The notes beneath the pieces were generated by a model, which did no database searches, was not told the origin of the DNA, and saw only the letters and a list, made by a program, of their open reading frames with translations. The translations under genes were made by a program, and so were the position numbers. A DNA stretch of 35,587 bases from assembly GCA_034659435.1 (NCBI GenBank), contig JAYEHJ010000091.1, positions 1-35,587 of the forward strand, in the 5' to 3' direction. This DNA comes from Patescibacteria group bacterium (GTDB lineage Bacteria; Patescibacteriota; Patescibacteriia; Patescibacteriales; UBA12075). This document shows positions 4,835 through 34,089 of this stretch, piece by piece; position 1 is the first letter of the stretch, and each line of letters begins with the position of its first letter.

Positions 4835-7687
4835 ATGCCCAAAAAACAAAAAAAATTAATGATTATAGATGGGAATGCTTTGATTCATCGGAGTTTTCAT
4901 GCCTTGCCGCCTACTATGACGACAAAAGACGGAACAGTTGTGAATGCTGTTTACGGTTTTATGAGTTTTTTAATTAAAGCCATGCGGGATTTGCGCCCGG
5001 AATACGTGGTTTTAACATTGGATAAAAAAGGGCCGACATTCAGGCATAAAAAGTTTAAAGAATATAAAGCAAAGCGGGTGAAAGCGCCGGATGAACTTTA
5101 CGCGCAAATTCCAATGGTAAAAAAACTGGCTATTGACTTTAATATCCCTGTTTTTGAAAAGGACGGTTTTGAGGCGGATGATTTAATTGGGACGATTTCG
5201 TCAGGAATCAGGAATCAAGAATCAGGAATCAAGGATTTAGAATGTATTATCGTTACTGGCGATAAGGATACTTTACAGCTGGTTAATAAAGAAACAAAGG
5301 TTTATTCTATGAGCCGCGGGTTAAGTGACTCTATATTGTATGATGAGGCGCTTGTGAAAGAAAAAATGGGTGTTAACGTCGGGCAGGTGGTTGATTATAA
5401 AGCGTTGAGCGGAGACGCGAGCGATAATATTCCGGGAGTGCCGGGAATTGGCGCCAAAACAGCGGTTGCGCTGTTAAAAGAGTTTGGTAATTTGGATAAT
5501 TTGTACAAACACGCAACTCACAGCTCACAACTCATAACTAAAAAAATTAAGCCTCGTATTTTGGATTTGCTTGTTGAGCATAAAAAAAGCGCTTATTTGT
5601 CGCGCGAATTGGCAACTATTAAATGTGATGTGAAAATTAAATTTAATTTGGAGGCTATGCGATTTTTTGATTTGGATAAAGATAAAATTGTTAAAGCCTT
5701 AAGCGAGCTTGAATTTAAATCTTTATTGCCACGGGTACAAAGTTTGTTTAACGAAGTCGGGTTGGATACAAAAGAAAAAAAACAGCAAGCAACTGAAGAT
5801 AAATTTAAGCGCAATAAGAATAGTTTTAAATATATTTTTGTTAATAATGAAAATAAGTTTAAAATTTTTTTGGCTGAATTAAAAAAACAAAAATACTTTA
5901 CTTTTGACACGGAAACTTCCAGTTTTGATCCGATTACATGTGATTTGCTGGGGGTTAGTTTTTCCTGGAAGAAAGGAGAAGCGCATTTTGTTCAGTTAAG
6001 AATTAAGAATGAAGAATTAAGAATTAAGGATTGTGGTCAAGGGTCATTGTTTGGAGAAACAAAAAAATTTTGTGATGATGACAAAGGAAAGATTTGGCTG
6101 GAAAAATTAAAGCCGATTTTTGCTGATGAAAAAATTAAAAAAACAGCGCATAATGCCAAGTTTGATGCGCGGGTTTTGAAAAATAAAGGCGTTGTTGTTA
6201 ATGGTTTGGATTTTGATACTATGATTGCTTCTTATCTTTTGAATCCGGGAACGCGCGGGCATGGCTTGGACGCGCTTGCTTTTACCGAGTTGGGGTTTGA
6301 AAAAATATCCAAGAATGATTTATTAGGAACAGGAAAAGACAAAAAAACTTTTAGCGAAGTGGAAATGGAAAAATTAAGCCTTTACTCGTGCGAAGACGCG
6401 GATTTTACCGAACGGCTAAGGCATGCTTTAAAGCCAAAATTAAAAAAAGAAAATCTGGAAGCGCTTTTTAAAACAATAGAGATGCCGTTGATTAGCGCGC
6501 TTTCATGCATGGAAGACACCGGCGTAAAAATTAACTCTGAATTTTTGTCAGAAATGAGCAGGAAAATGGCAAAAAAAATCAAAGCGCTTGAAAAAAAAAT
6601 TCATGATTTGGCAGGAGAAATTTTTAACATAAAATCAACAAAACAATTAAAATATATTTTATTTGAAAAAATGGAATTACCGACAGAAGCGATCAAAAAA
6701 ACCAAAACCGGTTTTTCAACAGGCGCGGATGAATTGGAAAAATTAAAAGAATATAGTCCGATAATTTCCTTAATTCAAGAATACAGAGAATTAAATAAAT
6801 TAGTCAGTACATATATTGACGCTTTACCCGCGCTTGTTAATGAAAAAACCAAACGAGTTCATACAAGCTATAATCAAACAATTACAGCTACCGGCAGATT
6901 GTCCTCCACAAAACCGAATTTACAGAATATTCCGGTTAAAACAGATTTGGGAAATGAAATCAGGAAAGCGTTTATCGCGGACAAGGGCTATAAATTATTG
7001 GCTTTGGACTATTCACAAATTGAATTAAGGCTTGCGGCGCATATGTCCGGCGACAAAAAGATGATTAAAGCGTTTAATAATGGGGCGGATATTCACAGCG
7101 CGACAGCGGCGGAAATAAATAATGTTTCTTTAGATGAAGTTAGCGCGAAGATGCGCCGAGAGGCAAAAGCTATAAATTTTGGCATTCTTTACGGGCAAGG
7201 CCCGCGCGGACTTTCCCGCGGAGTTAATATTCCTTACGCGCGAGCCAAGGATTTTATTGATAATTATTTTAAAGTCTATTCGGGAATAAAAACATATGTG
7301 AATGAAAAAATCGCGTTCGCGCGCGAATATGGCTACGCGGAAACAATGTATAAAAGAAAAAGATATTTGCCTGAAATCAATTCAAGTATTTTACAGGTAA
7401 AAAAAGGCGCCGAGCGCATGGCGATAAATACTCCGATACAAGGAACAGCCGCGGATATAATTAAAATCGCCATGATTGAAGTTATGGATAAAGTTTGCAG
7501 CAGCAAAGCAAAAATGCTTATGCAGGTTCATGATGAGTTGATTTTTGAAGTTAAAGATAGCGAGGTTAAAAAAGAAGCTGAGAAAATTAAAAAAATCATG
7601 GAAAATGTTGTTAAACTAGACGTTCCGATTATTGTTGATGTTAAGGCCGGGGAGAATTGGGGGGAGATGGGGTCAATTCTCAATTAA
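4835..7687 (+). CDS. polA: DNA polymerase I (5' nuclease + 3'-5' exonuclease + polymerase domains)
   Basis: 950 aa. 5' nuclease: EADDLIGT...TGDKD and GVPGIGAKTA. Exo motifs: FDTETSS, NAKFDARVL, YSCEDADFT. Pol motifs: DYSQIELR, RREAKAINFGILYG, QVHDEL. Confidence 0.95.
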   Translation: MPKKQKKLMIIDGNALIHRSFHALPPTMTTKDGTVVNAVYGFMSFLIKAMRDLRPEYVVLTLDKKGPTFRHKKFKEYKAKRVKAPDELYAQIPMVKKLAIDFNIPVFEKDGFEADDLIGTISSGIRNQESGIKDLECIIVTGDKDTLQLVNKETKVYSMSRGLSDSILYDEALVKEKMGVNVGQVVDYKALSGDASDNIPGVPGIGAKTAVALLKEFGNLDNLYKHATHSSQLITKKIKPRILDLLVEHKKSAYLSRELATIKCDVKIKFNLEAMRFFDLDKDKIVKALSELEFKSLLPRVQSLFNEVGLDTKEKKQQATEDKFKRNKNSFKYIFVNNENKFKIFLAELKKQKYFTFDTETSSFDPITCDLLGVSFSWKKGEAHFVQLRIKNEELRIKDCGQGSLFGETKKFCDDDKGKIWLEKLKPIFADEKIKKTAHNAKFDARVLKNKGVVVNGLDFDTMIASYLLNPGTRGHGLDALAFTELGFEKISKNDLLGTGKDKKTFSEVEMEKLSLYSCEDADFTERLRHALKPKLKKENLEALFKTIEMPLISALSCMEDTGVKINSEFLSEMSRKMAKKIKALEKKIHDLAGEIFNIKSTKQLKYILFEKMELPTEAIKKTKTGFSTGADELEKLKEYSPIISLIQEYRELNKLVSTYIDALPALVNEKTKRVHTSYNQTITATGRLSSTKPNLQNIPVKTDLGNEIRKAFIADKGYKLLALDYSQIELRLAAHMSGDKKMIKAFNNGADIHSATAAEINNVSLDEVSAKMRREAKAINFGILYGQGPRGLSRGVNIPYARAKDFIDNYFKVYSGIKTYVNEKIAFAREYGYAETMYKRKRYLPEINSSILQVKKGAERMAINTPIQGTAADIIKIAMIEVMDKVCSSKAKMLMQVHDELIFEVKDSEVKKEAEKIKKIMENVVKLDVPIIVDVKAGENWGEMGSILN
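5201..5242 (+). repeat. 7-nt periodic array, purine-rich flavour, in-frame in the polA 5' nuclease domain
   Basis: TCAGGAA TCAGGAA TCAAGAA TCAGGAA TCAAGGA TTTAGAA, translated SGIRNQESGIKDLE. Confidence 0.85.
5508..5542 (+). repeat. 7-nt periodic array, CA flavour, in-frame in polA
   Basis: AACACGC AACTCAC AGCTCAC AACTCAT AACTAAA, translated HATHSSQLITK. It shares a 15-nt identical core with the reverse complement of 9217-9244. Confidence 0.85.
5996..6037 (+). repeat. 7-nt periodic array, purine-rich flavour, in-frame in the polA 3'-5' exonuclease domain
   Basis: TTAAGAA TTAAGAA TGAAGAA TTAAGAA TTAAGGA TTGTGGT, translated LRIKNEELRIKDCG. Confidence 0.85.
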
Positions 7688-7749: not shown

Positions 7750-9144
7750 ATGTCAAGTCTTCAATATAAAAATTTAGAAAAATTAAAAAATACAAAGTGC
7801 ACCCCAAGGGCATTTCCTGCGGAGTACATTTTGGGTAAAAAAATCTGCATTCTTGGATTTGGGATTGAAAATCAGGCGCTGGTTGAATTTTTGTTGAACA
7901 AAGAAATAGATTGTGAAATAACTATTTGCGATGCGCGGGAAAATACCGTAGGAACGCGTCGTGGCGCGTTCCTACGCAACAAAAACATCAAATGGCGCTT
8001 AGGCAAAAATTATGACAAAAATCTTAATGAATATGATATTATTTTCCGCATTGCAGGGTATCCGCTATTTTCTCCTGAAATTAAAAAAGCTCAAGAAACA
8101 GGAGTTGAGATTTCCAGCCCGATAAAATTGTTTTTTGAAATATGTCCGACAAAAAATATTATCGGCGTAACAGGGACAAAAGGCAAAGGCACGACATCAT
8201 CTTTGATTTATGAAATTTTAAAAGCAGGCGGCAAGCAAGCTTTTTTTGGCGGGAATATTGGAATTCCTGTATTTAGTTTTTTTGAAAAAATTAAAAAAGA
8301 CGATTATGTTGTTTTGGAACTTTCCAGTTTTCAGCTTGAAAATTCGCGAATTAATCCAAAAGTAGCCGTAATTACAAATTTTTTTCGCGAACATTTAAAA
8401 CCTGCCGATCCGAATAATCCAAACCACCATAAAACCCTTGAAGATTATTGGCAGGCGAAATTTAATATTATACGTTCACAAACAAAAAATAATTTTGCGA
8501 TTATTAATAAAAATTTAAAATTAAAAGTTAAAGACAGTTTTAAAAATATTTTTAACAACAACAGCAAAAGAATTTATTTTAACAAATCCGATTTAAAATC
8601 ACAGTTGATCGGCGAGCATAACAAAGAGAATATCGCGGCGGCTTTTGAGGCTGCTAAAATTTTAAAAATCAATAAGAAACATACTATTAAGGCGATTGCG
8701 AATTTTAAAGGGCTTGAACATCGTTTGGAATTCGCGGGAAAGAAAAATTCAATTGATTTCTATAACGACAGTTTTGCCACTATTCCGGAATCAGCGGTTA
8801 CAGCCTTAAAATCATTTAACTGCCCGATAATTTTAATAGCCGGCGGCGCTGACAAGGGTAATGATTTTAAGGATATGGCAAAAATGATTAAGAAAAAAGT
8901 TAAATTTTTAATTTTGTTTACCGGCAAAGGCTCTGTTAGGCTGAAAAATCGTTTGCGCGAAATATCATTTTCCGATAATAAAATTGTTATGGCTGACACC
9001 ATGGATAAAGCAATAAAAATTGCCGTTAAAAATGCTGGCGCCGGAGACGCGGTTTTATTATCTCCCGGCTGCGCGAGTTTTGGAGTGTTTAAAAATTATA
9101 AAGAGCGCGGGCGTTTGTTTAAGGATGAGGTTGGCAAGATGTGA
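7750..9144 (+). CDS. murD: UDP-N-acetylmuramoyl-L-alanine--D-glutamate ligase
   Basis: Motifs GVTGTKGKGTTSS, GGNIG, ELSSFQLE, GLEHRLEF, SPGCASF. The start is uncertain. ATG 7750 is the ORF-track start. An in-frame TTG at 7831 is preceded by GGAG (7821-7824) and would give a canonical short N-terminus, MGKKICILGFG. Confidence 0.85.
   Translation: MSSLQYKNLEKLKNTKCTPRAFPAEYILGKKICILGFGIENQALVEFLLNKEIDCEITICDARENTVGTRRGAFLRNKNIKWRLGKNYDKNLNEYDIIFRIAGYPLFSPEIKKAQETGVEISSPIKLFFEICPTKNIIGVTGTKGKGTTSSLIYEILKAGGKQAFFGGNIGIPVFSFFEKIKKDDYVVLELSSFQLENSRINPKVAVITNFFREHLKPADPNNPNHHKTLEDYWQAKFNIIRSQTKNNFAIINKNLKLKVKDSFKNIFNNNSKRIYFNKSDLKSQLIGEHNKENIAAAFEAAKILKINKKHTIKAIANFKGLEHRLEFAGKKNSIDFYNDSFATIPESAVTALKSFNCPIILIAGGADKGNDFKDMAKMIKKKVKFLILFTGKGSVRLKNRLREISFSDNKIVMADTMDKAIKIAVKNAGAGDAVLLSPGCASFGVFKNYKERGRLFKDEVGKM
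7802..7824. repeat. family C copy (2 nt shorter) in the 5' end or leader of murD
   Basis: CCCCAAGGGCATTTCCTGCGGAG followed by TA. If ATG 7750 is used, it translates as TPRAFPAE. Confidence 0.7.
7947..7976. repeat. perfect 12-bp stem / 6-nt loop palindrome inside the murD CDS
   Basis: CGTAGGAACGCG-TCGTGG-CGCGTTCCTACG. It is 30 nt (10 codons) and encodes part of TVGTRRGAFLR. Confidence 0.85.
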
Positions 9145-11826: not shown

Positions 11827-12396
11827 CTATTTCCTAATATTAATATCATAATTTATCTGCTCAATCTTTCTTAAGTTGCCTTTGGCTTGATCGTATTTGG
11901 TGCGCAAATAGCCTGTCATGTCAAATTCAACCAATTCATGCAGAATATCGCTTATAATATTTTTAATTTTTTTCACCTCCGCGTAATTTCCGGCTGACGC
12001 TTGATTAACCGCCCTTCTCACAAGCTCGCCTGTTAAATCGCAAATTCCGCCTAAATAGCTTTCATAGCTTAATTTAATATTTTTAAATTTATCAATTTTT
12101 TTATTATTCAAAACCATATAAAAAGTTTTTGCTTCAGCGTATTCTTCAACGCCGGCCCTGTATGAACCTTCTTGGTTTAAACGAACATAGCCGAATTTCT
12201 TTTCCAATTTTATTAATATTTTTTCAATTTCATTTAAACTCGCAAGAGCCTTTTCTTTATCAAAACGATGCAAAGCGAAAATCACCCGCTTTGAATCATG
12301 CAAAACAACATTTGCCAAACTGATAATCTGCCTGCGCTCGCTATTATTTTCCAAATAGTCCTTTTTTAATTTTTGGATAAACTTCTTGTTAATCAT
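11827..12396 (-). CDS. translin-family protein
   Basis: All-helical ~190 aa with the translin/TRAX-type signature YLGGICDLTGELVRRA. ATG 12396 is preferred over GTG 12411. Confidence 0.55.
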   Translation of the reverse strand: MINKKFIQKLKKDYLENNSERRQIISLANVVLHDSKRVIFALHRFDKEKALASLNEIEKILIKLEKKFGYVRLNQEGSYRAGVEEYAEAKTFYMVLNNKKIDKFKNIKLSYESYLGGICDLTGELVRRAVNQASAGNYAEVKKIKNIISDILHELVEFDMTGYLRTKYDQAKGNLRKIEQINYDINIRK

Positions 12397-12411
12397 TTTT
12401 TTATATGACAC

Positions 12412-14202: not shown

Positions 14203-14215
14203 ATTTATATTTAAA

Positions 14216-14402
14216 GGGACTGCCGCCGAATGCCAGTTTTGGCATAAATTTTCAAATTTTGAGTAAACTTTTCTTAAAAAAATTTTGCTTATGTGATAAT
14301 ATACGCCCCGTAGGAAGTGCCCTTGGGGTAGGCCAAATTTTTTTAAGATAAATTTGCCAAAATTTGGGAATTTAGGGCAAACTGGCATTCGGCGACAGTC
14401 CC
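14216..14402. mobile_element. 187-bp MITE-like element, family A (terminal inverted repeats GGGACTGCCGCCGAATGCCAGTTTTGGCA / CAAACTGGCATTCGGCGACAGTCCC)
   Basis: The inverted termini were read directly. ATTTAAA lies on both flanks. The interior is non-coding and carries a nested family-C hairpin at 14304-14328. The element lies in the leader of the PilB/GspE gene. Confidence 0.8.
14304..14328. mobile_element. family C 25-nt hairpin micro-element (inverted) flanked by TA/TA, nested in the family A MITE
   Basis: TA[CGCCCCGTAGGAAGTGCCCTTGGGG]TA. Confidence 0.75.
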
Positions 14403-14463
14403 ATTTAAAATAAAGAAGACAAAAAGCCTTCTTTATTTAATATTTATAAATTTAATATTTATT

Positions 14464-17465: not shown

Positions 17466-17506
17466 ATGCCACTAACTATAATTTATTGCTATTCGGCGGC
17501 AGTCCC
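17459..17506. repeat. family A degenerate/solo right end
   Basis: TTGGCAAATGCC...ATTCGGCGGCAGTCCC followed by ATTTAAA, the same flank as the 14402 end. Confidence 0.6.
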
Positions 17507-19876: not shown

Positions 19877-19924
19877 ATGGGACTGTCGCCGAATGCCAAA
19901 ACCGGCATTCGGCGACAGTCCCAT
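19877..19924. repeat. family A short form: perfect 21-bp-stem palindrome
   Basis: ATGGGACTGTCGCCGAATGCC-AAAACC-GGCATTCGGCGACAGTCCCAT. Confidence 0.9.
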
Positions 19925-20266: not shown

Positions 20267-21679
20267 ATGTCAGAATTATCAAGTGCTATCAAACATGTTT
20301 GCGAGGAAAAAGGCTTGGATATGGACGCGGTAATATCTACCATTGAATACGCTTTGGCTGCCGCTTATCGCAAGGATTTTGGGCAAAAAAATCAAAATAT
20401 TATAGTTGAATTTGATACTGAAAAAGGGACTTCAAAAGTTTATGATGTTAAAACCGTGGTTGAGGATATTTTGGAAGAAGATGAACAGGAAAAAGAAAAA
20501 ATAAAGGATGAAAAAGTAAAAAGGGGCAAAGCTCCTGATGTTAAAAAAACGGATGGTAAAAAAGATGAAAAATCGGCTGAAGATAAAAATAAAAAAGAAG
20601 AAGATAAAAAGGACGAATCCGCCACCGCTAAAAAGTCGGCGGACTTGCCCGCCATAGCTTCAGCGGCGGAAGGCGAGGAAAGAAAATTTAATCCTAAAAC
20701 TGAAATTCAGATTAGTGATGCCAAAATGCTTAAAAAAACCGCGAAAATTGATGATGAAATTAAAACCAAGCTTGAAGTGCCGGATGCTTACGGACGCATG
20801 GCAGCGCAAACCGCCAAGCAGGTAATTATTCAAAGATTGCGGGAGGCAGAGCGGGAAATGATTTTTAATGATTTTAAAGACAAAGAACACGAGGTTGTTA
20901 GCGGCGTTATTCAAAGGCGCGAAGGCCGGATTATTTTGGTTGATTTGGGCAAGTCAGTCGGCGTTATTCCGCCGGATGAGCAAATTATCGGCGAGAAATA
21001 TAATACAGGCGACAGGGTTAAAGTTTATGTTAAAGAAGTTACTTTAAAGCCTAGGGGGCCGGAAATTATTCTTTCCCGCACTTCGGAAGAAATTTTGAAA
21101 AAAATATTTTATTTGGAAATTCCTGAAATTTCCAATGGCTTAATTGAGTTCAAAAGCGTGGCGCGCGAGGCAGGGTCGAGATCAAAGGTTGCCGTTTGGA
21201 CTGATTCGGAAAATGTTGATCCAATAGGTTCCTGCGTCGGCCAGCGCGGCTCTCGAATTCAAACTATTATCAATGAGCTTGGCGGGGAAAAAGTTGATAT
21301 CATTGAATATGATGACGATCTTAGCAGATATATTTCCAATGCTTTGTCTCCGGCAAAAATCGGTAAAATTGATATGAATGAAGAGACAAAAAAAGCCACA
21401 GTTACCGTTCCCAATGATCAGCTGTCTTTGGCAATCGGCAAAAGCGGACAAAACGCGCGTCTGGCAGCCAAGCTGACCGGTTGGAAAATTGATATTGTGG
21501 AAGATAAAGAGAATCAGGAATCAGGAATTAAGAATCAAGGAGAAGCTTCGGAAGATACCAAAAATGTTGATGATGTTGAAAATGCCGAAGAGAAAAACGA
21601 TGAACAGAATAAAGAGAAAATATCAAAAGATTCTGAAAATGTTAAAGCAGGCGAAGAAAAAGATGATGAAAAAAAATAA
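20267..21679 (+). CDS. nusA: transcription termination/antitermination factor NusA (with charged insertion and acidic tail)
   Basis: NTD, then RMAAQTAKQVIIQRLREAERE, S1 domain, and KH1/KH2 (GSCVGQRGSRIQ, AIGKSGQNARLAAKLTGWKIDI). Confidence 0.9.
   Translation: MSELSSAIKHVCEEKGLDMDAVISTIEYALAAAYRKDFGQKNQNIIVEFDTEKGTSKVYDVKTVVEDILEEDEQEKEKIKDEKVKRGKAPDVKKTDGKKDEKSAEDKNKKEEDKKDESATAKKSADLPAIASAAEGEERKFNPKTEIQISDAKMLKKTAKIDDEIKTKLEVPDAYGRMAAQTAKQVIIQRLREAEREMIFNDFKDKEHEVVSGVIQRREGRIILVDLGKSVGVIPPDEQIIGEKYNTGDRVKVYVKEVTLKPRGPEIILSRTSEEILKKIFYLEIPEISNGLIEFKSVAREAGSRSKVAVWTDSENVDPIGSCVGQRGSRIQTIINELGGEKVDIIEYDDDLSRYISNALSPAKIGKIDMNEETKKATVTVPNDQLSLAIGKSGQNARLAAKLTGWKIDIVEDKENQESGIKNQGEASEDTKNVDDVENAEEKNDEQNKEKISKDSENVKAGEEKDDEKK
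21514..21541 (+). repeat. 7-nt periodic array, purine-rich flavour, in-frame in the nusA C-terminal tail
   Basis: TCAGGAA TCAGGAA TTAAGAA TCAAGGA, translated QESGIKNQG. Confidence 0.85.
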
Positions 21680-24666: not shown

Positions 24667-24759
24667 TTTATAGTCAAGGAATTTGAATACCCCAAGGGCA
24701 CTTCCTTCGGGGCGTATTCCCGACTACTGTTAGTGCCCCTTGCGGGTATAACTTGTAAA
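24667..24759 (-). repeat. family B two-hairpin element (~66-nt core) carrying a nested 27-nt family-C insertion
   Basis: Aligns end to end with the reverse complement of 27723-27786, except for the insert at 24690-24716. Lies between tRNA-Ala and tRNA-Leu and is co-oriented with them. Confidence 0.8.
24690..24714. mobile_element. family C 25-nt hairpin micro-element flanked by TA/TA
   Basis: TA[CCCCAAGGGCACTTCCTTCGGGGCG]TA. The paralogous site in the other family B copy reads ...AAATA|TTCCC with a single TA. Confidence 0.8.
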
Positions 24760-25739: not shown

Positions 25740-25760
25740 GGCATTCGGCGGCAGTCTCAT
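25740..25760. repeat. family A solo right end
   Basis: GGCATTCGGCGGCAGTCTCAT. Confidence 0.6.
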
Positions 25761-27722: not shown

Positions 27723-27786
27723 TTTACAAGTTATGCCCAAAGGGCACTAACAGTAGTCGGGAATATTTAAATTCCTTGACTATAAA
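27723..27786 (+). repeat. family B two-hairpin element (uninterrupted copy) in the 5' UTR of the 27807 gene
   Basis: TTTACAAGTTATGCCCAAAGGGCACTAACAGTAGTCGGGAATATTTAAATTCCTTGACTATAAA. Hairpins GCCC-AAA-GGGC and AGTC.GGAAT-loop-ATTCC..GACT. Confidence 0.8.
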
Positions 27787-29362: not shown

Positions 29363-30697
29363 CTAAAAGGGACTGTCGCCAAATGCCAAAACTGGCATTC
29401 GGCGACAGTCCCTTATTTTTCGCAAATTTTTTAAATCTTCCTCTGATTGCTTGATATATTCTTTGTCCCTTTTCACAATATCGGGGTTGACTTGCAAAGA
29501 CATTTTATTCAGACCTAATAACTCCATTCCGCTAAGCGATCTTACTCTTGACAGGGCGACATAGCCCATACCATAATCAAAAGCGTCCCGCAAATCAACA
29601 ATCATCTCATCAAGGCTCATGCCCTGGCTTTTATGAACCGTAATCGCCCATGCCAGCCGCAAAGGCACTTGGCTTATTTTGGCAACCGTTTCATTGCCCT
29701 CCTCAACCGCCCACTCTCTTGGATAAGCGATAATTTGCCTATCGTCATTAGTTTTAACAATCGGATAATTATCAAATTCGCTAAAGCCGATAATTTTCCC
29801 AAGCGTGCCATTGACATAATGGGCAAAGCCGGATTCGCTGAATTTATTTTTTACAAACATTACTACCGCCCCTTTTTTTAAAACAAGCCTTGACGGCGCC
29901 ATGCAATTTTTTATTAAAAAATCAACCAATTGCTTTCGTCCTTTTTTATAAGATGATTTCATTTGATAGACTGTTTCGCTTTGTTTTATTTTTGCCAATT
30001 CAAAATCGTTTATGGCGTTAACGTCCTTGTTATTGGTGAACAATTTTGTCGGAGTAATATTTCCGCAAACCGGCCGGTTAAGCCTTGATTTTAATGTCAT
30101 CAAAGTATCTTTATCTATCTTGTTATTTCTGATGCTATTTAAAACTTTGATAAATTTTTTATCGCTATGCCTGTGCTGTTCATTTAAATAGCAGACTTTT
30201 AAACAAGATTCATTCCAAACGTTTGCCTTAAAAGCGTATTCATTATTTTCTTCTTTGCCGTTGACCGGCGGTAATTGAAAAAAATCACCGCAAAAAATAA
30301 CCTGAATTCCGCCAAAAGGCGCGATGCTGTTTTTGAAAGACATGCAAATATTGTTAACCAAGTCCAGCCTGTCGGCATCAAGCATTGATATCTCATCAAT
30401 AATCAATACTTTTGTTTTAAGCATCCTGTTCTTTAGATATCTTTTATTTAAAATGGTTTTAAATTCCGCTTTGCTTAATTGCTTGGCGATTCCCATCCCG
30501 CACCAGGAATGAATTGTTATGCCGCCGATATGCGTAGCCGCGATGCCTGTTGAAGCCGTAACTGCCGCGCTAATATGCTTTGACTTTAAATAGCTGATAT
30601 ATTTATTTAAAAGAAAAGTCTTCCCGCTTCCGGCAGGACCTGTCAAAAAAACATTAGCGCCCAGTTTTAATAATTGAAAAGCTTCTTCTTGTTTCAT
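29363..30697 (-). CDS. SF1B Pif1/RecD-like ATP-dependent DNA helicase
   Basis: Walker A GPAGSGKTF, Walker B LIIDEISM, C-terminal ITVHKSQGMSLD and YVALSRV motifs. The last 16 codons and the stop are encoded by a palindromic repeat. Confidence 0.8.
   Translation of the reverse strand: MKQEEAFQLLKLGANVFLTGPAGSGKTFLLNKYISYLKSKHISAAVTASTGIAATHIGGITIHSWCGMGIAKQLSKAEFKTILNKRYLKNRMLKTKVLIIDEISMLDADRLDLVNNICMSFKNSIAPFGGIQVIFCGDFFQLPPVNGKEENNEYAFKANVWNESCLKVCYLNEQHRHSDKKFIKVLNSIRNNKIDKDTLMTLKSRLNRPVCGNITPTKLFTNNKDVNAINDFELAKIKQSETVYQMKSSYKKGRKQLVDFLIKNCMAPSRLVLKKGAVVMFVKNKFSESGFAHYVNGTLGKIIGFSEFDNYPIVKTNDDRQIIAYPREWAVEEGNETVAKISQVPLRLAWAITVHKSQGMSLDEMIVDLRDAFDYGMGYVALSRVRSLSGMELLGLNKMSLQVNPDIVKRDKEYIKQSEEDLKNLRKIRDCRRMPVLAFGDSPF
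29367..29414. repeat. family A short form overlapping the 3' end of the helicase CDS
   Basis: AAGGGACTGTCGCCAAATGCC-AAAACT-GGCATTCGGCGACAGTCCCTT, with one A/C mismatch in the stem. Confidence 0.9.
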
Positions 30698-31143: not shown

Positions 31144-34089
31144 ATGCCAAATTCTAAAAATAATAATTTTATTAAAATTAAAGGCGCGCGCGTTCATAAT
31201 TTAAAAAATATTAATGTGGATATTCCGAGGAATAAATTTACGGTTATTACCGGACTTTCCGGCTCGGGAAAATCTTCACTTGCTTTTGACACGATTTACG
31301 CCGAAGGCCAAAGGCGATATGTTGAATCATTATCAGCCTACGCGCGGCAATTTGTCGGTCTTATGGACAAGCCTGATGTGGATTTAATTGAGGGACTCTC
31401 GCCGGCAATATCAATTGACCAAAAAACCGCGCCGCGCAATCCGCGCTCAACAGTCGGAACGGTTACGGAAATATATGACTATATGCGCCTTTTATACGCC
31501 CGTATCGGCATTCCGCACTGCCCTGATTGCGGCAATAAAATTCGTCCGTACACGGTTGATGAAATAGTTGAGCAAATCAATAAAAATTTTTTAGATCAAG
31601 AAACAATTATTCTCGCGCCAATTGTCAAAGATAAAAAAGGCGAGCATAAAAATATTCTTGACGGAATCGCCAAAGCCGGCTTTAGCCGCCTGCGTTTTGA
31701 CAAAGTCATTTACACTTTGGAAGAAATAGAAGATATGGAAGTTAACAAGCAAAAAAAACATACGGTTGAAATTATAATTGACCGCGTAAAAATCAAAAAA
31801 AATAAAGAAGACCAAGCGCGCCTAACAGAAGCGATTGAAAAAGCGCTTGATTTATCCAACGGACTTATCACGGTTTTACCAGCAATTCAACAATTTAACA
31901 ATGAAACAATAAAAAAGTCAAATAAAAATACAAAACGCGCCCCAAGGGCATTTCCCGCGGGGCGCCCTTTGGATAAAAAAACAAACGAAATCACTTATTC
32001 AAAATTATTCGCCTGCCCTGACTGCGGAATCAGCCTTGCTGAATTGGAGCCGCGCAGCTTTTCTTTTAATTCGCCGCACGGAGCCTGTGAAGAATGTTCG
32101 GGAATAGGAACTAAGCTGGAAATTGACCCGAAATTAATTGTTAATCCAAATTTAACAATCGCGCAGGGCGGAATCAAATCATGGATGCACGGAAGCGCCG
32201 GGCAAACATGGCTAATGCGTATTTTAGGAACCGTTGCCGTTAAAAACGGTTTTGATTTGAATACGCCAATCAAAGATTTAAGCAAAAAACAGCTTGACAT
32301 TGTCTTCTACGGCACCGGCGATAAAAATTACAATGTTGATTACGACAGCGATCGCTTTTCAGGAGAGCTAAACACCGGATTTGAAGGAGTAATTCCCAAT
32401 TTAGAAAAAAGATATAATCGCACCGAATCGGATTGGGTTAGAAAAGATATTGAACAATATATGCGCGTTTTAATATGCCCTAAATGCAAAGGCCAAAGGC
32501 TTAAAAAAGAAGTTTTAGCCGTAAAAATTCTTGGCCGTTCCATTCATGATGTCAGCATCAAAACAATCAATGAAGCAAAAAGATTTTTTTGCTCGCTTGA
32601 AACCGCGAAAGAGTTAAGCGCTCGCGATAAAAAAATAGCAAATCAAATAATTAAGGAAATCCGCACGCGGCTTGATTTTCTTCTTAATGTCGGCTTGAAT
32701 TATTTAACCCTGAACCGCGCCGCCAATACTCTTTCCGGCGGCGAAGCTCAGCGCATACGGCTGGCAAACCAAATCGGCACATCATTGGTAGGTGTTTTAT
32801 ACATTTTAGATGAACCGTCAATCGGCTTGCATCAAAGAGATAATAAAAAATTAATTTCCACTATTAAAAAATTAAGGGATATCGGTAATACAGTAATCGT
32901 GGTTGAGCATGACGAGGAAACCATGATGTCCGCTGATTGGATTATTGATGTCGGACCCGGCGCGGGCGCTAAAGGCGGAGAGATTATCGCGGCCGGAACC
33001 CCCGCGCGGATTAAAAAATCAGCCAAATCTTTAACAGGACAATATCTTGCCAATAAAAAATCAATTCCCACTCCAAGCAAATACCGCTTTGGCCTTAAAC
33101 AATCAATAAAAATCATCGGCGCGTCAGAACATAATTTAAAAAATATTGACGCAAAATTTCCTTTGGGAAAATTCATAGCCATTACCGGAGTATCAGGATC
33201 CGGCAAATCCACCCTTATGACTGATATTTTGGCAAAAGCCTTAAACAAAAAATTTTATCGCGCCAAAGCCGAAGCAGGCGCGCATAAACGAATTGAAGGG
33301 CTTGGCTTTATTAATAAAGTAATCAACATTGATCAATCGCCGATAGGACGCACTCCTCGTTCCAACCCCGCCACATATACCGGCGCATTCACTCCAATCC
33401 GCGACTTATTCGCGCAATTGCCGGAAGCGAAAATCCGCGGCTACAAAGCCGGGCGTTTTTCTTTTAATGTCGTTGGCGGCCGCTGCGAAGCCTGCTCCGG
33501 CGACGGCATGGTAAAAATTGAAATGCAATTTCTGCCGGATGTTTACGTGGAATGCGAAGTCTGCCGCGGGCAAAGATACAATAAAGAGGCTTTAGATATT
33601 TATTATAAAGAAAAAAATATTTCCGATGTTTTAAACATGACGATTGAAGAGGCAATGAAATTTTTTAAAAATATTCCGGCAATCCATATAAAAATGAAAA
33701 CCTTGCATGAAGTCGGCTTGGGCTATATAAAACTAGGGCAATCCGCAACCACTCTTTCCGGCGGAGAAGCCCAGCGCGTTAAGCTCGCAACGGAGCTTTC
33801 CCGCCGCGCGACAGGCAAAACTTTGTACATTTTGGACGAACCGACAACCGGCTTGCATTTTGAAGATATTAAAAAACTTTTAAGCGTCCTAAACAAATTG
33901 GTTGACAAAGGAAACACTGTTTTAATTATTGAGCATAATCTGGATGTAATTAAATCCGTTGACCATATCATTGACTTGGGTCCGGAAGGAGGCGGCAAAG
34001 GCGGAAAAATCGTAGCGCAGGGCACGCCTAGAGAAGTGGCAAAAACCAATACGCATACAGGGAAATTTTTGAAGAAAGTGTTGAAATAA
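31144..34089 (+). CDS. uvrA: excinuclease ABC subunit A
   Basis: 981 aa. Two ABC modules ([22 protein letters not shown]; LSGGEAQR twice) and zinc modules CPDCG...CEEC and CEAC...CEVC. Confidence 0.95.
31940..31964. repeat. family C copy in-frame inside uvrA
   Basis: CCCCAAGGGCATTTCCCGCGGGGCG, translated as part of [14 protein letters not shown]. Confidence 0.8.

Follow-up and report, generated by a model that had tools for sequence, protein, structure and literature searches.

Two kinds of very small repeats, the small dispersed repeats (SDRs) of cyanobacteria and the repetitive extragenic palindromes (REPs), occur in large numbers, yet they have seldom been caught moving, and the agents that move them have mostly been deduced indirectly. 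SDR1 to SDR8 of Nostoc and its relatives, which Elhai et al. reportedly described in 2008, are said to be 21–27 nt long, to have hairpin potential, and to be nested in miniature inverted-repeat transposable elements (MITEs) and in themselves; their recent mobility was reportedly deduced from comparisons of filled and empty sites, and the enzyme was not identified. REPs of 20–40 bp are known in many phyla, also inside uvrA and polA, and the mobility of those with GTAG and CGTC tags is attributed to tyrosine (HUH) transposases named RAYT (Di Nocera et al. 2013, PMC3733652). This report concerns a 27-nt repeat unit located at 24688..24714 (plus strand) of contig JAYEHJ010000091.1, from a Patescibacteria group bacterium; the whole stretch of 35,587 nt that was analyzed is hereafter referred to as the window. 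The unit was found as the difference between a filled and an empty copy of a larger repeat, near-identical copies of it occur in at least five phyla, and it ranks among the smallest DNA elements that look mobile.

Insertion, boundaries and target of the 27-nt unit

The window contains two copies (~65 nt) of a repeat named here family B. The copy at 24.7 kb (24667..24759, plus strand, ~62 nt minus the insert) reads GGAATTTGAATA[CCCCAAGGGCACTTCCTTCGGGGCG]TATTCCCGAC, and the copy at 27.7 kb (27723..27786, minus strand) reads GGAATTTAAATA/TTCCCGAC, where the slash, here and below, marks the point of insertion; aligned with the 24.7-kb copy, the latter is the empty form GGAATTTAAA/TATTCCC. Pairwise alignment finds the two collinear end to end with a single 27-column gap, as the initial annotation had claimed in describing a net difference of 27 nt at one point, and the placement of this gap is ambiguous by the dinucleotide TA. 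The gap is filled by TA plus CCCCAAGGGCACTTCCTTCGGGGCG (24688..24714, plus strand), which has no mismatch to the family consensus and sits in the apical loop of the first family B hairpin, within the tRNA-Leu/tRNA-Ala spacer. Its minimum-energy fold is a bulged hairpin in which CCCC.AAGG faces CCTT(C)GGGG, in agreement with the hairpin first proposed, CCCC.AAGG-loop-CCTT.GGGG.

The 27-nt difference is an insertion and not a deletion in the 27.7-kb copy, again as was claimed at the outset, because the other family B copies are empty and the sister spacers lack the insert. A gap-tolerant pattern found five matches to family B in metagenomes, all of them empty, and four further empty copies are present in the near-identical sister contigs L139 and L140 (two loci each), giving a tally of one filled copy to at least eight empty ones. 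In three other sister contigs (L138, L135, and L136), whose trigger factor is 89–90% identical, the orthologous tRNA-Leu/tRNA-Ala spacer reads TTATTTTAT/AAAATTAGTGCG and holds neither family B nor the insert, and it is at this junction that the window carries family B plus the nested 27-mer. Because family B is absent there from the sister contigs, it is itself an insertion in the tRNA spacer and, on the same ground, is taken to be mobile. At the start of murD, alignment shows that L139 and L140 share the ATGTCAAGTCTTCAA start and lack 45 nt present in the window, which consist of the 27-nt unit enclosed in an 18-nt motif, motif C. The closest uvrA genes (93% identical, L125 and L126) have motif C alone, apparently empty, at the place that corresponds to a further copy, with a half copy noted in L125; as an empty site this case is suggestive only, since MAFFT puts the gap elsewhere and the linker is too variable to be aligned firmly. 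The ~138 kb of partly redundant sister DNA contain no full copy, versus four in the window, and the element has therefore to be seen as recently arrived or expanded in this CPR (candidate phyla radiation) lineage.

Within the window, the 25-mer CCCCAAGGGCACTTCCTTCGGGGCG has three matches at up to three mismatches versus 0.00 expected from 100 shuffles, including 14304-14328 on the minus strand with one mismatch and 31940-31964 with three, and its 16-nt core is exact at 7802, 14313, 24690, and 31940. Confinement to these four loci, which the initial annotation had set against its own reading, is not what was found elsewhere. When a collection with one genome per bacterial species was scanned with the exact pattern CCCCAAGGGCAYTTCCNNCGG, which requires 19 exact bases, at least 119 loci with at least 131 copies of a near-invariant sequence were recovered. 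Copy flanks were then joined and all loci searched for uninterrupted versions, and this gave pairs of filled and empty sites from Thiodiazotropha, Desulfobacterota, and a proteobacterial metagenome-assembled genome (MAG); with those of this lineage, the independent pairs number eight. Every pair differs by exactly YA plus the 25-mer, namely by 27 nt, or by 26 nt when the G run is three. The empty sites include caaggcg/cgaggag, cagggcg/tattgg, and ttcaggcg/caaccc in Thiodiazotropha, gccttg/tatatgg and catatg/cctg in Desulfobacterota, and caaggg/cataag in the proteobacterial MAG; several of them, for example the first and the fifth of these, have no TA or CA at the junction.

These boundaries do not agree with the 25-nt element flanked by a 2-bp TA duplication that had been proposed initially, and a tabulation of the flanks reveals no paired TA rule. 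On the 5' side of the 25-mer, CA or TA is found in 124 of the 131 copies listed, usually after G (GCA 62, GTA 43, TCA 10) and with the paired C coming next, and 56% of the copies begin with CA. On the 3' side, YA is found in only 43% (CA 37, CC 29, TA 22, CG 16, CT 13). The left and right dinucleotides are the same at 17 of 69 independent sites, versus 14.9 expected (P=0.27). Decay of a former duplication cannot explain flanks that mismatch at 75% of the sites, because the 25-nt bodies are almost unmutated. Given this chance-level identity, and the empty sites without TA or CA, the YA travels with the element: the mobile unit is 27 nt long, brings its own YA, and generates no target-site duplication. 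Its consensus is 5'-YA-CCCCAAGGGCAYTTCCTNCGG(G)GCR-3'. As for the TA flanks claimed for the window, they are present at the 24.7-kb and 14304 copies and missing from the two coding copies, with CG..CC around the UvrA copy (31940) and CA..CA around the MurD copy (7802).

A logo of 64 independent sites describes the target as Y at −4 (81%), G at −3 (73%), Y at +1 (94%), and A at +2 (48%), so that placement is mostly between G and Y, at about YG/YA. This target resembles the head-to-tail junction of tandem units, CG/YA, and because it mimics that junction, arrays can grow. Tandem arrays with a 27-nt period are found at L024, L060, and L095; loci with two copies mostly carry them on the same strand (L001, L024, L041, L044, L053, L060, L095), and a close inverted pair is found only at L057. 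At the positions left free by the search, position 17 is T in 135 of 138 copies and position 18 can be any base, the G run is four in 69 copies and three in 66, and positions 12 and 25 covary (C-G 113, T-A 18, three exceptions), a linkage that may simply mark two subfamilies and could reflect either a contact or shared descent.

Three ideas on structure or targeting were tried and set aside. Targeting of hairpin apices does not hold as a rule, since only 5 of the 64 independent sites lie in predicted loops once the unit is removed, versus 14% of random positions. A two-hairpin RNA model, CCC(CAA)GGG plus a C(UNCG)G tetraloop stem, had been prompted by the free position 18, the covariation of positions 12 and 25, and a Burkholderia variant, and it is ~8 kcal/mol costlier than the long hairpin. 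Pairing between the flanks, at (−3,+1), (−4,+2), and beyond, shows no covariation past base preference. A less regular site was observed in the viral contig L120 (4280-4590), where, among three ~57-nt tandem repeats GGAAACGGAGACTTTAGTCCCGAACAGCGGAGGCGAAGCCTTCCGATTCC, one has the unit replacing the dinucleotide AG, so that the insertion there is not perfectly clean.

Distribution, nesting and genomic context

The distribution of the unit is patchy and spans at least five phyla. Among the matches listed, many hosts belong to the Desulfobacterota, and others are Thiodiazotropha, Sedimenticolaceae, Chromatiales, and other Gammaproteobacteria; Rhodocyclaceae and Dechloromonas (Betaproteobacteria); one alphaproteobacterial MAG; Sulfurovum (Campylobacterota); and, among the Bacillota, Ruminococcus, Oscillospiraceae, other Clostridia, and Fuchsiella. 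No cyanobacterium is named among the locus titles listed. Most of the host genomes are MAGs, and cultured or closed carriers include Ruminococcus flavefaciens FD-1, Fuchsiella alkaliacetigena Z-7100, and Desulfosarcina widdelii PP31, together with the genome of the symbiont Candidatus Thiodiazotropha endolucinida. A locus labeled Neomarinimicrobiota has flanks 94–97% identical to a Desulfobacteraceae MAG and is probably a binning error. BLAST with a query of two units head to tail, one copy per main variant, added Sulfurovum mangrovi and replicons of Burkholderia and Paraburkholderia; among plasmids and chromids it gave only four matches, and it found none in 50,697 phage records and none in 5,426 E. 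coli genomes. Three viral contigs carry the unit.

Copies are often nested in other repeats: in families A and B and in motif C of this lineage, at the center of a Desulfobacterota MITE, and in the loop of a Sulfurovum REP, and split copies occur as well. The Sulfurovum case, from a Sulfurovum mangrovi replicon (L133, 1490-1535), reads TGTC-ATTCCCAA-cttg-[unit]-TTGGGAAT, with the unit in the loop, and its host looks like a CGTC-type REP, which would place the unit within a repeat from a described family. Placement is predominantly intergenic, and copies in real genes are rare outside the window: the longest open stretch across the copy is below 100 aa for 75 of 134 copies, and although 9 of the 10 copies inside open reading frames (ORFs) of at least 150 aa are in sense orientation, few of these ORFs are real genes. 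One apparent coding array, in L060, actually lies upstream of etfB, where it is covered by a spurious ORF. The genes around the copies are co-directional in 44 cases, convergent in 20, and divergent in 5, and the unit is co-oriented with co-directional flanking genes at a ratio of 34:10, or 16:7 after related sites are collapsed. The same orientation pattern is expected for insertion of one strand into the lagging-strand template. The bias toward co-directional and convergent neighbors is also the pattern described for REPs (PMC3733652).

The window itself is a piece of bacterial chromosome with ~37% G+C, which encodes PolA, MurD, a PilB-like ATPase, FtsH, NusA, trigger factor, HU, RNase Y, a Pif1 helicase, UvrA, and five tRNAs, and whose closest named relatives are Candidatus Falkowbacteria and Parcubacteria of the CPR. 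Besides the copy in family B, a unit formed by TA plus CCCCAAGGGCACTTCCTACGGGGCG lies at 14304..14330 on the minus strand, at the center of a long family A palindrome, which confirms the statement of the initial annotation that the 14304-14328 copy is within family A and bracketed TA...TA. The inverted repeat around it, I4, has its arms at 14247-14291 and 14329-14373, and the whole long form, as found by an inverted-repeat search, extends over 190 nt (14213..14403).

The remaining two copies are in coding sequence, both of them within the common 18-nt host motif C. The first, CG plus CCCCAAGGGCATTTCCCGCGGGGCG (31938..31964, plus strand), lies in frame in the hypervariable linker of uvrA, at about aa 265-274, with motif C flanks at 31929-31937 and 31965-31975 (composite 31929-31975). 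The second, CA plus CCCCAAGGGCATTTCCTGCGGAGTA (7800..7826, plus strand), has a decayed 3' end and lies in frame in the N-terminal region of murD; here the composite, in which motif C, TACAAAGTG...CATTTTGGGTA, surrounds the unit, spans 7791..7837 (plus strand) and was delimited from the alignment and from the 58-nt repeat D15. On the opposite strand, motif C reads TA-CCCCAAGGGCACTT-TG-TA, and is a short form of the 27-nt element. The uvrA linker with the copy is ~30 residues longer than that of the UvrA from Geobacillus (Bacillus) stearothermophilus (PDB 2r6f) and is hypervariable among CPR genomes, and the composite insert extends the N-terminus of MurD by 15 codons. The unit has no stop codon in any of the six frames, and being nine codons long, it is tolerated in frame in the two proteins. 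The initial annotation had seen in this length a mechanism that preserves the frame automatically; the net 27 nt, the lack of stops, and the two in-frame copies stand, whereas the generalization does not, because about half of the copies elsewhere are 26 nt. Frame neutrality is therefore one reason for tolerance in this genome and not a design feature of the family.

Several other observations concern these sites and the host repeats. Family A, a palindrome of 44 nt that is nearly perfect, GGGACTGTCGCCGAATGCC-loop-GGCATTCGGCGACAGTCCC, is present at five places in the window, with short forms of 44 nt at 19879-19922 and 29369-29412 and half copies at 17488-17506 and 25740-25758 in addition to the long form; the sister contigs and other loci examined yielded no copy of it. 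Family B, conserved over ~62 nt as TTTAYAGTCAAGGAATTTGAATATTCCCGACTACTGTTAGTGCCCTTTGGGCATAACTTGT with two hairpins, occurs in unrelated AT-rich intergenic regions of several related CPR genomes, its sites besides those in the window being L127-L131, L139 (14074 and 15887), and L140 (9470 and 11283). On its reverse strand, TTGACT precedes tRNA-Leu and ORF 27807 at a short distance and is a possible promoter facing outward. In the tRNA-Leu/tRNA-Ala spacer, the sisters have another insert of ~100 nt, TTTGTGCATAGATTGCAG...CAACAGTTAA (L138 5727-5830; L135 5146-5260; L136 5030-5144), that the window lacks. Contig L134, which belongs to the same strain, stops just short of the element and is uninformative. 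At murD, a third sister, L141 (3660-3705), has an unrelated G+C-rich hairpin, ATCAGCCCGAGATTGATCCGCCTTGGGCG, at the exact place of the insert, which is an apparent hot spot of small insertions. In the murD copy, the decayed 3' end (7821-7833) contains GGAG at a distance of six bases from a downstream in-frame TTG; the two could plausibly serve as an internal ribosome-binding site and start codon, although it is the upstream murD ATG that is conserved as the start in sister genomes. The UvrA linkers of many Falkowbacteria-like proteins (P0031, P0033, P0037, P0040, and others; aa 245-280 in the window) hold differing short G+C-rich inserts with recurring peptides such as PPLNKGG, PLYQGG, and SPLIKGV, an indication that this tolerant site is also occupied by other families of hairpin repeats.

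Two features of the window stand apart from the unit. Runs of a 7-nt unit, GAATCAG/GAATCAA (these being alternative forms), occur inside the essential genes polA (5191-5249 and 6000-6030) and nusA (21511-21541), encode the same peptide, ..NQESGIK.., and look like another small family of in-frame inserts in coding sequence. In addition, a protein of the Translin family (Pfam PF01997, E=2e-23), which is mainly eukaryotic and archaeal, is encoded at 11827-12411 on the minus strand.

How the unit may be moved

The reading we favor, at about even odds (roughly 0.5), is that of a REP-like hairpin unit moved in trans. The block at 24688-24714 would then be one copy of a non-autonomous 27-nt repeat unit, pasted without target-site duplication and preferentially between a G and a pyrimidine. 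Since the unit encodes nothing, its movement must depend on a factor produced at another place in the genome, and since near-identical units are found in distant phyla, either this factor or the element itself would spread horizontally. The enzyme is envisaged to recognize a single-stranded hairpin, nick it, and rejoin it, in a manner akin to the HUH tyrosine transposases RAYT and IS200/IS605 TnpA, and in this CPR genome the unit would have landed in other small repeats, namely families A and B and motif C. By analogy, an HUH/Y1 enzyme (IS200/IS605 TnpA or RAYT) acting on single strands fits best, because there is no duplication, the adjacent motif is very short, and the unit is essentially one hairpin; even so, we regard this identity of the mover as tentative and less likely than not. 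A related and somewhat doubtful possibility is that the unit is the product of a horizontally transmissible, undescribed "writer", either a hairpin nicking-joining enzyme or a reverse transcriptase (RT) with a template RNA, that deposits a fixed 27-nt cassette. If this were true, the unit would be the smallest mobile element common to several phyla, from the CPR to Firmicutes and Proteobacteria.

A number of results weigh against a REP-like unit of this kind. The hairpin of the main variant is only 1.5-2.5 standard deviations better in energy than shuffled sequences, that of the CATTT...GCA variant is no better than its shuffles, and the stability is ordinary for a G+C-rich 30-mer of such composition. 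The conserved 5' tag is G-Y-A followed by the paired C, and not the GTAG or CGTC of the described REP superfamilies; the copies are mostly single or head-to-tail, and not inverted doublets of the REPIN type; and the near-identity across phyla differs from the usual lineage-specific REP families, although the invariance at the 19 scanned positions is partly a product of the search, because the scan demanded exact bases there. Moreover, neither the window nor the DNA within 8 kb of the copies at the 119 loci listed yielded a transposase, whether RAYT, IS200/IS605, or any other. More broadly, the window has no gene for a transposase, recombinase, or RT, and clustering of the neighboring genes (1,973 ORFs from 122 loci) returned nothing but housekeeping families, among them sensor kinases, ABC ATPases, and dehydrogenases. 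With Rfam 15, the window yields only tRNAs and 18 loci yield only an unrelated pemK RNA, and a literature search for the sequence strings, in forward, reverse, and RNA forms, gave no relevant match.

The initial annotation had assigned the block to a 25-bp miniature inverted-repeat element moved by a TA-duplicating transposase of the IS630/Tc1-mariner type. Two of the four window copies do read TA...TA, and where the 3' dinucleotide is TA, the 5' one is TA at 9 of 12 independent sites, which may reflect AT-rich hosts. The model is nevertheless contradicted, and we consider it highly improbable: flank identity is at chance level overall, the flanks differ at 75% of the sites despite almost unmutated bodies, some empty sites have no TA or CA, 56% of the copies start with CA, the stems are only 8-9 bp, and no such transposase is present in the window or beside the copies at the 119 loci listed. 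Still harder to sustain is the proposal that nothing has moved and that the block is an additional stem-loop, optionally present in a structured family B RNA, or that the 27.7-kb copy has a deletion. The block does sit exactly in the family B apical loop, where an extra helix would be structurally neutral, yet the same 27 nt occur in unrelated contexts of the window and in at least five phyla, all other family B copies are without the block, and there is no Rfam family.

Two further explanations accept the insertion and differ in how it is made. Should an RT with a small template RNA copy the 27-nt cassette onto a nicked 3' end, repetition of this step giving the arrays and the RT-RNA pair spreading horizontally, then the identical sequence across phyla, the in-phase tandem arrays with their 27-nt period, and the bias of the copies to the sense strand of transcription units would all be accounted for; so would the targets, which end in (Y)G like the unit and at some sites share GGCG or GGGCG with its 3' end. 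An RNA intermediate was reportedly also proposed in 2008, by Elhai et al., for the cyanobacterial SDRs of 21–27 nt. This writing from RNA is unlikely, however, as neither an RT gene nor a conserved master locus nor a flank common between phyla was seen at the loci listed, the junction microhomology in the 64-site logo is at most about 2 nt, and there is no poly-A or 5'-truncation series, partial copies being rare. The other explanation dispenses with an enzyme altogether and invokes recombination or template switching, in which stalled replication or break repair at hairpins copies the patch by means of ...G / GGCG microhomology. Some sites do have 4-5 nt of microhomology, and the copies are often within other palindromic repeats, as in families A and B, the Desulfobacterota MITE center, and the Sulfurovum REP loop. 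On the other hand, dozens of unrelated sites have exactly the same boundaries, base for base, hairpin apices show no overall enrichment (5/64 sites versus 14% of control positions), and the identity across phyla is left unexplained, so that we rate this explanation as quite improbable.

Comparison with known repeat families

What this family adds to the study of such repeats are exact filled and empty sites in unrelated lineages, a sharp 27-nt unit, and a simple target rule. Since one sequence is found across at least five phyla, a comparison of carrier and noncarrier genomes could point to the responsible gene. In the reduced CPR genome, nine-codon inserts free of stops lengthen the linkers of essential proteins (UvrA and MurD), and the element also marks places at which assemblies break and at which gene callers can be expected to report odd insertions. 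Should the mover prove to be a compact enzyme for inserting a defined short DNA at loosely specified sites, it may attract interest as a tool.

The unit is not an IS630-type MITE. It shares with the IS630/Tc1-mariner MITEs and the Correia elements of Neisseria the character of a small non-autonomous repeat, and two window copies are bracketed TA...TA, but those elements are 100-500 bp long, have long inverted repeats at their ends, and truly duplicate TA, and at 27 or 26 nt the unit is well short of the length used to define MITEs (roughly 80-500 bp). The Rickettsia palindromic elements (RPEs) and the GC clusters of yeast mitochondria are likewise GC-rich palindromes in AT-rich genomes, inserted in frame into protein genes, where they are tolerated in surface loops or linkers; RPEs, however, are ~100-150 bp and restricted to Rickettsia, the GC clusters are restricted to mitochondria, and neither is common to several phyla. 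With the SDRs, compared here by their description, the unit has in common the length of 21–27 nt and the nesting in MITEs, tandem repeats, or own copies, but SDRs are reportedly confined to one cyanobacterial subgroup.

The closest likeness is to the REPs. Like them, the unit is an imperfect palindrome of 20-40 nt, in the form of a 27-nt bulged hairpin, with a short conserved tag at one end and no coding capacity; it occurs as singles, dimers, and clusters in several phyla, mainly extragenic and downstream of genes, with convergent or co-directional neighbors; and occasional copies are found in frame in DNA-repair genes, which for this type of repeat include uvrA and polA. The differences are that REPs have an unpaired GTAG or CGTC tag, whereas the G-Y-A of the unit resembles GTAG only in part; that no RAYT is encoded within the 8-kb pieces around the copies; that the unit is head-to-tail or single where REPINs are inverted doublets; that it has clear filled and empty sites with exact boundaries; and that it is near-identical across phyla, whereas REP families are mostly lineage-specific. 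Taken together, the unit belongs with the very small mobile palindromic repeats, and its unusual feature among them is its near-identity across phyla.

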